Shown piece by piece: positions 39,366-41,496 of a stretch of 64,000 nucleotides of DNA. The stretch is from an uncultured Clostridia bacterium (lineage in GTDB: Bacteria; Bacillota; Clostridia; Christensenellales; UBA1242), in the NCBI GenBank assembly GCA_947062475.1, contig CAMSQA010000001.1, positions 815 to 64,814 on the forward strand. The letters run 5' to 3'. The notes under the pieces were generated by a model. The model saw only the letters and a program-made list of their open reading frames with translations. It made no database searches and was not told the DNA's origin. A program made the translations under genes and the position numbers. Numbering within the stretch: the first letter of the stretch is position 1; the number at the start of each line of letters is the position of its first letter.

Positions 39366-39394
39366 TTGACATAGAACTCATAAAGAATTATCAT
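39366..39394 (+). promoter_or_regulatory. Sigma-A-type promoter TTGACA-17-TATCAT for the TIM-barrel/SIR2-like operon
   Basis: Hexamers read directly. Confidence 0.45.
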
Positions 39395-39454
39395 ATTTAT
39401 ATTGAATTAATAAGGAATAAAATAAGACAATAACAAAACACTTAGGAGTAAACT

Positions 39455-40252
39455 ATGAAAAAAGGTATAAGTTTTTATTTTGGATTTGAAGATGAAGGTT
39501 CGCATGAAGAAAGAGTGAAAATGATCAAGGATGCTGGTTTTGACAGTGTAATCACTGTTGCAAACAAAAAATTGGACAAACAAAATGGAAAATTCAAAAG
39601 CCAGATAAAATTTTTTAAGAAACATAGCCTTTCTCCCTCTTCTTTGCATATGAGATATAACAGATCAGAATTGCCAGAGTTTTTCAAAGATGGAAAAGTT
39701 GGCAAAAGAATGGAAAAAGATTTGAAAAGAGATGTCAAACTTGCAAAAAAATATGGCTTTTCATGCGTTGTTGTTCACCTATTTTGCACTTCACCTTCAA
39801 GAGAAATTGGCTTTGACAGGATAAGAAAAGTTTTAAAACTTTGTGAAAAAATTGATTTGCCTCTTGCAATTGAAAATATTGATGACCAAGAAACATTTAA
39901 AGCCGTGTTTAAGGAAATCAATCACCCATATTTAAAAATGTGTTATGACAGTGGTCATAATCATTGCTTTGACCCTGAATTTGATTATTTCAAAGATTAT
40001 GGAGATAAAATTATCTGCCTGCATCTACATGATAACTTTGGCAAGAAAGATGAACATACGTTAAACAAATATGGATCAATTGATTGGCAAAAAATTGCCT
40101 ATAACTTAGCAAAACTTCCCAATGAAGTTGTTTTAGACTATGAAATATTAATGCACACCGGTGACAATGAAACAAAAGAAGAAACTTTAATAGAAGTTTT
40201 TAAACAAGCTTGTCAACTTGAAAATATGATCAAGAAAGCAAAAAACAAATAA
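39455..40252 (+). CDS. Xylose-isomerase-like TIM-barrel protein (AP_endonuc_2 / sugar phosphate isomerase-epimerase family)
   Basis: 265 aa. Pattern of metal ligands typical of the family: VVVHL, LAIENI, DSGH, LHLHDN, LDYE. Confidence 0.65.
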   Translation: MKKGISFYFGFEDEGSHEERVKMIKDAGFDSVITVANKKLDKQNGKFKSQIKFFKKHSLSPSSLHMRYNRSELPEFFKDGKVGKRMEKDLKRDVKLAKKYGFSCVVVHLFCTSPSREIGFDRIRKVLKLCEKIDLPLAIENIDDQETFKAVFKEINHPYLKMCYDSGHNHCFDPEFDYFKDYGDKIICLHLHDNFGKKDEHTLNKYGSIDWQKIAYNLAKLPNEVVLDYEILMHTGDNETKEETLIEVFKQACQLENMIKKAKNK

Positions 40253-40276
40253 AATTTATTTAGTCAAGGATAAATT

Positions 40277-41458
40277 ATGTTTCCATTAAAAATTTTTAAA
40301 TTTAATCAGCAAGAAAGTCAGACTTTCAACAAATATTTTGCAGAAAAGAATGGAGAATTTTATTTTGAAGGTATGTGGTTTCGAAATCAAAGACCTGAAA
40401 ATAAAAATCAATCAGGATATATTGATAAGACAACTCAAAGAAGAAGATATATTCATTTTTACAACACTTATACAAACAAAAATGAAAACTTCTCTTTAAA
40501 AAATGCTTATATGATTGTTTCAAACACAATGCCTAAAGAAGAAAATGAGAGATATTTAAAAAGAATTTTAGATGCATTAAAAGAAAATCAGTTTAAAAAA
40601 ATAAATCATCGACTTTGGCAAAAAGAAAACCTACAGATCATCATTGATATATATGAAAATCACCCTATGAACGAACTTTGCAAAGCTTCTTTTCCTTCAA
40701 ATTATAATTCCATTGACATAATCGCACTCACTGAAGGATATGACTATCAAGAACATTATTTAAGAATGTGGAATCATTCAACAAAACTTTTTAGAATACC
40801 TGAAAAAAGGGAAAATCCAAAATATATTCATGATATAAATGAGATAAAGAAATTTCTTCCTGCACAAGTGGAAATGGGTTGCGGACCTTCTATCGCTGCG
40901 GGAATTGATCCTTTATATGAAATGCATGAAACTTATCGTGTCCAAAACCATATATCTAAAAAATTTTATTTTGCCGATGATGACGATTTAATGGAAAACT
41001 TAATAAAAGATCCATTGTCAGCATACATCAAATTTTCTCAAACGCCAAAAAAGTGCTTGCAAGCAAAGCACACCGAAGCTTATAATACTTTTAATAAACT
41101 ATATAAAAATGGACTTTTTGTTGGCACAGTTTACAACAACAATTTTGATAGACTTGTAAAACGCTTTGACATACCTGAAATAATTTTAAGAACATACAAT
41201 ATCAAGACTTATATTCAAAAAATCAACTTTGACCAAAAAGCAAAATCTCTTATTTGCATTGGCACTCATGCAGACAGACGACAAGTGCAAAAACAGGCAA
41301 GAGAGGCAGGATTGCAAATTATTTACATTGACCCAGAAGGTTTTTATAATGATGACGGTTTTATATCCTACCCTATTGAAGGTCCAAAAAATAATGATAT
41401 TATATTAAAAATGACTTTTGAAGAAGCGATGGAAAAATTTGCAAAAGAGCTTTTATAA
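40277..41458 (+). CDS. Divergent SIR2/DHS-like NAD-binding-fold protein with an unknown ~200-aa N-terminal domain
   Basis: 393 aa. GCGPSIAAGIDPLYE corresponds to GAGIS..GIP.FR. GTVYNNNFDRL corresponds to TQNID.L. LICIGTHADRRQV...LQIIYIDPEG corresponds to viGTSl.V.P...iN.e. There is no zinc-ribbon insert and no obvious catalytic His. Confidence 0.45.
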   Translation: MFPLKIFKFNQQESQTFNKYFAEKNGEFYFEGMWFRNQRPENKNQSGYIDKTTQRRRYIHFYNTYTNKNENFSLKNAYMIVSNTMPKEENERYLKRILDALKENQFKKINHRLWQKENLQIIIDIYENHPMNELCKASFPSNYNSIDIIALTEGYDYQEHYLRMWNHSTKLFRIPEKRENPKYIHDINEIKKFLPAQVEMGCGPSIAAGIDPLYEMHETYRVQNHISKKFYFADDDDLMENLIKDPLSAYIKFSQTPKKCLQAKHTEAYNTFNKLYKNGLFVGTVYNNNFDRLVKRFDIPEIILRTYNIKTYIQKINFDQKAKSLICIGTHADRRQVQKQAREAGLQIIYIDPEGFYNDDGFISYPIEGPKNNDIILKMTFEEAMEKFAKELL

Positions 41459-41474
41459 AAACTATACCTTAAAA

Positions 41475-41496
41475 ACGCGAAATTTCGCGTTTTTTG
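41475..41496 (+). terminator. Rho-independent terminator
   Basis: 16-nt palindrome ACGCGAAATTTCGCGT plus a T-run. Confidence 0.7.

Follow-up and report, generated by a model that had tools for sequence, protein, structure and literature searches.

A discrete two-gene transcription unit

In this study we analyze a two-gene unit of an uncultured Clostridia bacterium (GTDB lineage Bacillota; Clostridia; Christensenellales; UBA1242) and the protein family to which its second gene belongs. The unit lies in a stretch of 64,000 nucleotides (assembly GCA_947062475.1, contig CAMSQA010000001.1, positions 815 to 64,814 of the forward strand), henceforth termed the window, to which all coordinates refer. 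It comprises two open reading frames (ORFs) on the plus strand that are separated by 24 nt: ORF A, which encodes a TIM-barrel protein, and ORF B, which encodes a two-domain protein with a SIR2-like core (Table 1).

The unit is framed on both sides. A hairpin of the upstream gene forms its 5' boundary, and an intrinsic terminator with the stem AAAAACGCGA/TCGCGTTTTT forms its 3' boundary, none of 200 shuffled sequences folding as well as the latter. The promoter, predicted from its consensus match only, is the joint best site in a 3.6-kb scan (38400–42000). RNA folding of the gap between the two genes gave no significant hairpin (z = -1.8). Because promoter, upstream hairpin, a gap that holds nothing but a ribosome-binding site, and terminator are all present, a single real and discrete transcription unit is confirmed at the sequence level. 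A first-pass annotation of this DNA had described the promoter, the 24-nt gap and a palindromic terminator, and each element lies where that annotation placed it. An Rfam scan of 38300–41800 matched no RNA family, and a riboswitch ahead of ORF A was discarded as a candidate, the 5' untranslated region of ~55 nt being too short.

Table 1. Features of the A-B unit in the window.
Feature	Position	Strand	Basis or remark
Terminator hairpin of the upstream gene, AT-rich	39328..39355	+	-11.7 kcal/mol, z = -4.8, 0/200 shuffles equal
Predicted sigma-70-type promoter, TTGACA-17-TATCAT	39366..39394	+	11/12 consensus positions
Ribosome-binding site AGGAG	39444..39448	+	6 nt 5' of the ORF A start codon; by reading
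ORF A, AP_endonuc_2 / xylose-isomerase-like TIM-barrel metalloenzyme, 265 aa	39455..40252	+	Pfam PF01261
Ribosome-binding site AAGGA	40266..40270	+	6 nt 5' of the ORF B start codon, within the intergenic gap; by reading
ORF B, 393 aa	40277..41458	+	N-terminal domain and SIR2-like core
ORF B N-terminal domain, residues 1-185, alpha/beta	40277..40831	+	AlphaFold2 model, pLDDT 91.6 (modelled alone)
ORF B C-terminal SIR2-like Rossmann domain, residues 186-393, and stop codon	40832..41458	+	Foldseek, hhalign
GCGPS, residues 201-205, counterpart of the dinucleotide-binding loop GAGIS of sirtuins	40877..40891	+	Invariant in 40 homologues
NNFD, residues 288-291, counterpart of QNID in sirtuins	41138..41149	+	Invariant
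R305-T306-Y307, Tyr307 at the position of the sirtuin catalytic His	41189..41197	+	Profile alignment to Sir2Tm H116Y
HADRR, residues 331-335, family signature	41267..41281	+	Loop after the GTS-equivalent strand; invariant in B
Intrinsic terminator, 10-bp stem and T-run	41471..41494	+	-11.3 kcal/mol, z = -4.1

ORF B is a divergent member of the SIR2 superfamily

ORF B has no Pfam match at E ≤ 0.1 and drew only noise from NCBIfam and PADLOC, and a phmmer search against PDB sequences returned nothing. When its AlphaFold2 model (pLDDT 93, pTM 0.90) was searched against the PDB with Foldseek, the best 35 matches were all SIR2 proteins, including SPARSA SIR2-APAZ, DSR2, ThsA and the sirtuin human SIRT2. 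The best single match was SPARSA (8jl0), with values that are modest for this two-domain query (best E 1.4e-3, prob 1.0, TM 0.3-0.4).

A second line of evidence runs through a sister family with the same two-domain layout, in which an N-terminal domain with the motif WGWKRD...SRxVYF precedes GSGxSyEaGlPtL, TDNxD and GVaADRR. Compared by hhalign, the profiles of B and of this sister family align over both domains (prob 99.9, E 2.5e-32). Members of the sister family score 34.9, 25.9 and 24.0 bits with Pfam SIR2, reaching its gathering threshold of 24, and the family profile matches Sir2-Af1 (E 2.1e-5), Sir2-Af2, Sir2Tm and SIRT7 in the PDB; sirtuins are the only profile matches. The alignment of the B profile with the Sir2Tm H116Y mutant (E 0.9) served for motif register alone, not for homology, and sets AKPt..Y...NNNFDRL...ILRiY opposite AKPNLAH...TQNIDRL...IELYG.

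Because fold matches, transitive profile matches and motif register agree, we regard ORF B as a true member of the SIR2 superfamily (DHS-like NAD-binding Rossmann fold), as judged from its predicted structure and from profiles linked through the sister family. The first-pass annotation had aligned it to the SIR2 fold by eye and left the fold to be checked by structure prediction; fold, profiles and register all bear that alignment out. With sirtuins (PF02146; Sir2Tm, Sir2-Af1/Af2, CobB, human SIRT2) the protein shares a Rossmann core with helical insert, the GxGxS loop followed by GIP, the AKP..H/Y...L..L motif, a (Q/N)N(I/F)D motif in which Asn and Asp are kept, the order of the strands as far as the one equivalent to GTS, and the final xxN/DP strand.

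The sirtuin active site is partly kept and partly replaced

We assessed conservation in an alignment of 40 B homologues, down to 45% identity, which contains 62 invariant columns and shows constant length. The four motifs on which the by-eye alignment had been based, GCGPSIAAGIDP (residues 201-212), GTVYNNNFDRL (283-293), LICIGTHADRRQV (325-337) and IIYIDPEG (348-355), consist mostly of invariant residues. Within the core, GCGPS, H217, NNFD, R305, G329-x-HADRR and D352-x-E354 do not vary. The dinucleotide-binding loop is supported from two sides, as the GSGxS of the sister family stands opposite sirtuin GAGVS in the profile alignment. The NNFD motif aligns to TQNIDRL in Sir2Tm and, through the sister family, to QNVD in Sir2-Af1, so that N289 and D291 of the nicotinamide/ribose pocket are kept and invariant.

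What distinguishes B from sirtuins is the loss of the catalytic His, of the zinc ribbon and of the cofactor-loop Phe-Arg (PLY in B), the replacement of GTS by G-x-H-A-D-R-R, and the presence of an extra 185-aa N-terminal domain. None of the 40 B sequences or of eight sister-family sequences has a His at the catalytic position, which is occupied by Tyr307-Asn308 in B (Tyr307 at least 90% conserved) and by ERxRGSG in the sister family. There is no zinc ribbon, because the ~20 residues from R305 to the next core strand at G329 leave no space for one; conserved Cys pairs are absent, C202 and C327 being the only conserved Cys residues. The first-pass annotation had read the same pattern from the ORF B sequence, and the alignments extend it to the family. 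As the His, the zinc ribbon and the Pfam score are all lacking, B falls outside the sirtuin deacylases.

Seven charged or polar residues are invariant in both B and the sister family, namely H217, N289, D291, R305, D333, R334 and R335, the A-D-R-R portion of the signature being likewise shared. H217 sits in the cofactor loop, and R305 precedes the position of the lost His by two residues.

A new N-terminal domain and a wide distribution

The N-terminal domain, which had been noted as a stretch of about 200 aa of no recognizable kind and is here delimited to residues 1-185, is modelled with a long antiparallel sheet. Invariant positions are F30, E31, G32, W34, R36, Q38, N42, S46, R56, H129, P130, Y143, D147, W165, K170, R173 and R178. 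A Foldseek search of the domain model against the PDB gave no significant match (best E 0.05, TM < 0.3); weak matches were to lipocalins, SRPBCC-type proteins, porins and LplA-2. The full-length B model likewise matched nothing significant among the viral predicted structures of BFVD. In a profile search of 1.84 billion representatives the domain occurs only before a B-type SIR2 core, and the sister family carries it as well.

At least 387 full-length B homologues of ~390-405 aa were collected, all of them called hypothetical, and in the same exhaustive search B and its sister family together make up only 245 clusters. A scan of GTDB species representatives gave 64 B loci. Identity to the window protein is 52-81% in Clostridia/Christensenellales metagenome-assembled genomes (MAGs), ~45% in uncultured gut Bacilli and 30-42% in Patescibacteria, Myxococcota, Acidobacteriota, Proteobacteria, Bdellovibrionales and Psychrobacillus sp. 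L4. A tblastn search added 13 large Streptomyces/Kitasatospora plasmids with copies at ~30% identity, which RefSeq names hypothetical in Streptomyces; plasmid-borne B is confined to Streptomycetaceae. An archaeal member of the sister family sits in a housekeeping context.

Identity thus declines in step with taxonomy, and together with the constant length and the 62 invariant columns this shows signs of an enzyme under stable selection, as far as sequence conservation can indicate. We found no description of the family in the literature, and no curated model names it. B and its relatives are a small, unannotated and phylogenetically wide SIR2 clade with a new N-terminal domain. One Christensenellales MAG holds two B paralogues on separate contigs (L018 and L022), both ~56% identical to the window protein, and an HD gene follows one of the two.

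ORF A and its association with ORF B

ORF A passes the PF01261 threshold (E 6.4e-16, 59.2 bits against a cut-off of 31.1, residues 23-243 of 265), in agreement with its first-pass assignment to the AP_endonuc_2 TIM barrels, and carries the usual metal-site motifs AIEN, DSGH and HLHD. At least 228 homologues were found, every one with PF01261. The full barrel and the metal motifs are shared with UlaE/SgbU, CbiR, Endo IV and MJ1311, the last of which, itself uncharacterised, is the nearest PDB sequence. An identity as the cobamide-remodelling phosphodiesterase CbiR was considered and rejected (NCBIfam NF041277, 32.4 bits against an equivalog cut-off of 105, with no cobamide genes nearby), and the score for L-ribulose-5-phosphate 3-epimerase was 23 bits against epimerase cut-offs of 200-317. 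Because it scores far under the equivalog cut-offs of both CbiR and the UlaE/SgbU epimerases, ORF A is not assignable to a specific reaction.

To judge the pairing, ORFs were called in 78 loci, and the loci were collapsed to 60 non-redundant sets by treating B proteins of 90% identity or more as one. An AP_endonuc_2 gene adjoins B in three of these. The first is the window; the second is its nearest relative (B 81% identical), with the order HD-A-B, an HD gene overlapping A and an A-B gap of 122 nt; the third (L001-3) has the reversed order, B then TIM barrel, with a gap of 0 nt and a TIM barrel 31% identical to ORF A. In L001 of this third set, B, the TIM barrel and an EamA transporter form one terminator-bounded unit. 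The adjacency has therefore arisen twice independently (window/L010 and L001), in opposite orders, and it is lineage-specific rather than a conserved system. The first-pass annotation had taken the two genes for a system and pointed to co-occurrence as the way to check it; the count of 3/60 and the solitary orthologues of A do not sustain that view.

These data leave room for an accident of gene order, in which A would be a solitary housekeeping enzyme of the sugar-phosphate isomerase/epimerase type and B an independent protein. Such an accident would account for A orthologues at 53-61% identity that stand alone in unrelated contexts, for B relatives at 62-75% identity (L039, L016, L017, L026) without an adjacent A, and for the looser HD-A-B arrangement of the nearest relative. 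It accounts less well for two independent origins with divergent TIM barrels, for the 0-nt gap and the transporter-containing operon of L001, or for the 24-nt gap without a terminator in the window. We consider the accident somewhat unlikely, and the two origins argue for some functional affinity between the families.

A link to the NAD regulon through NrtR was also considered and set aside. An NrtR-like gene lies three genes downstream in L001, with its own promoter, which carries a candidate GT-N7-AC site, and a terminator in between; no such site was seen upstream of B in that locus. The proximity is a weak hint at most.

Genomic partners of the B family

We next describe an unbiased Pfam scan of 148 immediate neighbours of B from 59 non-redundant sets. 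The most frequent families were HD (10), GT4 (7), S-adenosylmethionine methyltransferase (7) and aldo-keto reductase (3), with AP_endonuc_2, NUDIX and HD_4 at two each. In 7 of 24 Clostridial sets the gene next to B, in the same orientation, encodes an HD phosphohydrolase of ~250 aa, and in L016 a Metallophos phosphoesterase precedes the HD-B pair. In four sets from different phyla B is followed by a ~250-aa Nudix protein, twice over in Psychrobacillus. The Nudix box of this protein is clear, and its match to the UDP-sugar pyrophosphatase NUDT22 is weak but co-linear. This NUDT22-like Nudix is fused to the C-terminus of B in one protein (P0275). Canonical Nudix genes lie at most four genes from B in six further sets of the 60, the window included, where a 183-aa canonical NUDIX hydrolase (44073–44624, plus strand) is encoded three genes downstream of B.

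Other partners act on nucleotide sugars. Two sister-family proteins (P0357, P0362) are fused to RmlD-like or GDP-mannose-dehydratase-like SDR domains. Acidobacteriota and Myxococcota show the order methyltransferase, B, BshA/MshA-like GT4, aldo-keto reductase, and on one IMG/VR contig (L082) B lies amid GT4, GT2 and two heptosyltransferase-like GT9 genes. The Streptomycetaceae plasmids carry a cassette of class-III aminotransferase, B, UDP-glucose/GDP-mannose dehydrogenase, GNAT and RmlD-like sugar-nucleotide-binding protein. It is present in six of seven loci inspected (L083-L089) and complete in four; one of the partial versions lacks a listed GNAT, the other both GNAT and the RmlD-like gene, and the seventh locus keeps only the RmlD-like gene. 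Integrases, IS21 elements and helix-turn-helix regulators flank the cassette.

On the chromosome of Psychrobacillus sp. L4 (L074, 1–16700) a B homologue of 30% identity lies inside a cluster resembling those of non-ribosomal peptide synthetases, with a 2128-aa synthetase, TatD, a 78-aa carrier protein, two AMP-binding enzymes, two NUDT22-like Nudix paralogues and a DUF2920 hydrolase. As this strain is in culture, the family could be studied there. In gut Bacilli MAGs (L004-L006, L046, L052) the neighbour is a divergently oriented gene for a 444-aa protein with a RelA/SpoT-type HD_4 and a P-loop (AAA_28-like) domain, and in the same clade a conserved 155-aa protein without family match follows B.

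Two themes unite the partners: phosphoesterases, drawn from several superfamilies, and enzymes that modify nucleotide-activated sugars or transfer them.

Defence genes are near background around B

SIR2-fold NADases are effectors of several defence systems, and an anti-phage role for the pair had been one of two guesses in the first-pass annotation. On this account B would deplete NAD+ upon infection and ORF A would serve as a nuclease or accessory protein. Several observations have a defensive look. SPARSA, DSR2 and ThsA are among the best structural neighbours of B, and, like ThsA, DSR1/DSR2, SIR2-HerA, SPARSA and KomC, B combines a SIR2 fold with the absence of deacylase features. The KomC paper (PMC13454610) reports an Asp that is found specifically in defence NADases; the invariant Asp333 of B, in the loop after the GTS-equivalent strand, would lie roughly there and may parallel KomC D194. 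In L016 (2–5800) a B protein 75% identical to that of the window is the last gene of a same-strand run of McrB-like AAA_5, RE_LlaJI, Metallophos, HD and B; this is the sole locus in which a restriction system directly abuts the HD-B module. The Streptomycetaceae copies lie on plasmids beside integrases and insertion sequences, and one of these loci has an AbiV gene at a distance of 7 kb.

Set against these observations, PADLOC found ~3 genuine defence genes among the 148 neighbours (a Type I methyltransferase, Cas9 and a Type II methyltransferase), which is near background as judged from raw counts without a genome-wide null model. PADLOC gave no SIR2-type match for B or its Streptomyces homologue and none for the Streptomyces cassette and the other partners, save a generic similarity of HD to Cas3. 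No B was found in 50,697 phage records, and 2.9 million viral contigs of IMG/VR yielded a single match. Defence SIR2 NADases keep the catalytic His, sit in defence islands and are fused to or paired with SLOG, HerA, pAgo/APAZ, a large C-terminal domain or KomB, whereas B does neither and has none of these. SLOG, TIR ThsB, HerA and pAgo/APAZ partners are absent from the 25 commonest Pfam or PADLOC families among the 148 neighbours, and B has no sensor domain. An arrangement like Kongming, in which the SIR2 protein KomC goes with a Ham1-like KomB and a deaminase, KomA, and which PADLOC 2.0.0 predates, was considered as well. Among the loci inspected, isolated neighbours resemble it, namely an NTPase_I-T gene (L048) and deaminases of TadA/Cdd type (L013, L001), and no such triad recurs.

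The mode of evolution also differs. Fast-evolving defence genes do not as a rule show strong conservation together with divergence that tracks taxonomy, whereas B is conserved, constant in length and divergent in line with taxonomy, mostly in housekeeping contexts. The absence of neighbour enrichment, phage copies and a sensor partner leaves little of the defence guess, and we regard an anti-phage pair as very improbable, the mobile-element flanks in Streptomyces keeping a small probability alive. A metabolic or biosynthetic role is most likely.

A tentative role in NAD and sugar-nucleotide metabolism

We tentatively propose, with somewhat less than even confidence, that B is a His-independent enzyme that would cleave NAD+ or an ADP-linked sugar, and that lineage-specific partners would process its product. 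We read B as an active enzyme because the parts that hold NAD are kept, the parts that make a deacylase are replaced, and new invariant polar residues have appeared. B would bind NAD+ or a closely related ADP-linked sugar dinucleotide, with GxGxS holding the pyrophosphate and Asn289 and Asp291 the nicotinamide riboside, and would act at the anomeric carbon, by cleavage or transfer, through a mechanism that does not require the His. It would release ADP-ribose or an ADP-ribosyl/ADP-sugar product, and the N-terminal domain may form an acceptor or specificity site.

The partners would then divide the work by lineage. ORF A may isomerise, epimerise or cleave a phosphoester of the sugar or sugar-phosphate part of the product. 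The HD phosphohydrolase may take the partner's place in related Clostridia, and the adjacent or fused NUDT22-like Nudix pyrophosphatase in other phyla; RmlD-like/SDR reductases, a UDP-glucose-type dehydrogenase, the class-III aminotransferase, GNAT and glycosyltransferases are further candidates. Judging from the established properties of these families, RmlD-like, aldo-keto and SDR reductases could plausibly act on the free aldehyde of ADP-ribose, which would also suit a class-III aminotransferase followed by GNAT, or aldose-ketose isomerases and epimerases of the ORF A type. GT9-type transferases are classical users of ADP-sugars, and Nudix, HD and Metallophos enzymes might trim or recycle the nucleotide part. 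In its most specific form, which we consider unlikely as stated, the proposal is that B turns NAD+ into an activated ADP-sugar for reduction, oxidation, transamination, acetylation, transfer or recycling. The B family would then represent an enzymatic use of the SIR2 fold not recognised before, by which NAD+ would feed the biosynthesis of glycans or small molecules, a prospect we hold to be equally doubtful. The other guess of the first-pass annotation, a putative salvage of NAD- or ADP-ribose-derived sugar phosphates, had pointed in this direction, and neighbourhoods and fusions point there too.

Several points weigh against the proposal. The catalytic His that the solved defence SIR2 NADases need is absent from B, and the cofactor-loop Phe-Arg is replaced. 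Binding and turnover of NAD by B are inferred from conserved residues. The superfamily assignment itself comes from predicted fold and transitive profile matches, the B profile compared directly with PDB sirtuins being insignificant (2h4h, the Sir2Tm mutant, as its match). Neighbourhoods are heterogeneous, and many loci have no operon partner at all. As for ORF A, orthologues that live without B in housekeeping surroundings and the rarity of the adjacency, by which co-transcription could be incidental, count against a coupling of the two proteins. The group that UDP-glucose-type dehydrogenases oxidise is a free primary alcohol; ADP-ribose has none, so a version of the proposal built on ADP-ribose does not fit every partner.

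The same losses are compatible with B being a catalytically dead SIR2-fold binder of NAD, ADP-ribose or a nucleotide sugar, such as a sensor or a regulatory or scaffolding subunit, whose neighbours do the enzymatic work. Loss of His, zinc ribbon and Phe-Arg together would be expected of such a protein, and fusions to whole enzymes (Nudix, SDR) fit a regulatory or substrate-delivery domain. We find this rather improbable, more so than the accident of gene order discussed above, as the invariant charged and polar residues cluster in the SIR2 active-site motifs, a pattern typical of catalysis, and many B loci have no enzymatic partner nearby for which B could act.

An active B enzyme with product-processing partners would have parallels in known systems. 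SirTM proteins, macrodomain-linked ADP-ribosylating sirtuins, are encoded in operons that carry Macro, GcvH-L and LplA2 (PMC4518038). The likeness to B, by analogy, lies in ADP-ribosyl transfer by a SIR2-family protein, which is only predicted for B, and in an operon with enzymes that process the product. SirTM matches Pfam SIR2, which B does not; Macro, GcvH-L and LplA2 are absent from the commonest neighbour families of B and from the loci inspected, and the LplA-2 trace in the structure searches is a weak, non-significant Foldseek match (prob 0.25-0.63). In CobT/CobB-type reactions a pyridine nucleotide donates a (phospho/ADP-)ribosyl group to a small molecule and a phosphoesterase trims the product. 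The associations of B with Nudix, HD, Metallophos and TIM-barrel genes may follow a similar logic, as an analogy only: no cobamide genes were found beside B, and ORF A is not CbiR by score.

Flanking genes in the window

The unit lies in the sole long plus-strand block of the window (34776–44624), the rest of which is almost all on the minus strand, and GC content is 26-30% across 38–44 kb against ~33% elsewhere. This suggests a distinct segment, possibly acquired or fast-evolving, which is yet syntenic in genus-level relatives. Within the block, 35914–38251 (plus strand) encodes DUF4417 (245 aa), a 272-aa ORF, a ~100-aa ORF and a Cys_rich_CPCC protein (155 aa), and this DUF4417 block is syntenic in related Clostridial genomes (L078, 8277–10632; L010, 1713–2186). 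In L078 an A orthologue precedes the block by ~1.5 kb, the 12.8 kb inspected contain no B gene, and ~1.5 kb beyond the block follows a gene for a PnuC-type nicotinamide mononucleotide transporter (PF04973).

Immediately upstream of the A-B unit, an ORF of 224 aa (38638–39312, plus strand) without family assignment and with coiled-coil-like character has its own terminator hairpin and its own promoter (38591–38619), the TTGACA-17-TATCAT hexamers of which are identical to those of the A-B promoter; two paralogues of it precede HD-A-B in L014. Downstream, an ORF of 447 aa (41686–43029, plus strand) consists of ~11 degenerate repeats of ~37 aa (..ADIKAHGKVIIESKDxxWNYxFAKxIxGA..), with no Pfam family and no tandem repeat at the DNA level. 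Paralogues of this ORF occupy the same place 3' of B in L010 and L014.

Implications

SIR2 proteins are mainly known as protein deacylases, ADP-ribosyltransferases or NAD-depleting immune effectors, and the B clade fits neither the deacylase/ADP-ribosyltransferase group nor the immune effectors. The main interest of the locus lies in B, an uncharacterised and widespread offshoot of SIR2 with a testable link to sugar nucleotides, and not in the A-B pair, which is no conserved entity. Strong conservation of the clade extends from gut Firmicutes with reduced genomes and Patescibacteria (candidate phyla radiation) to plasmids of Streptomyces and to archaea. Should B prove a pseudo-enzyme, it would be an example of the SIR2 fold reused as a ligand sensor. 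If instead it acts on NAD+ or ADP-sugars, NAD turnover would be tied to the metabolism of sugar nucleotides, several hundred proteins now called hypothetical would gain a function, and the case would warn against labelling every orphan SIR2-like gene as defence.

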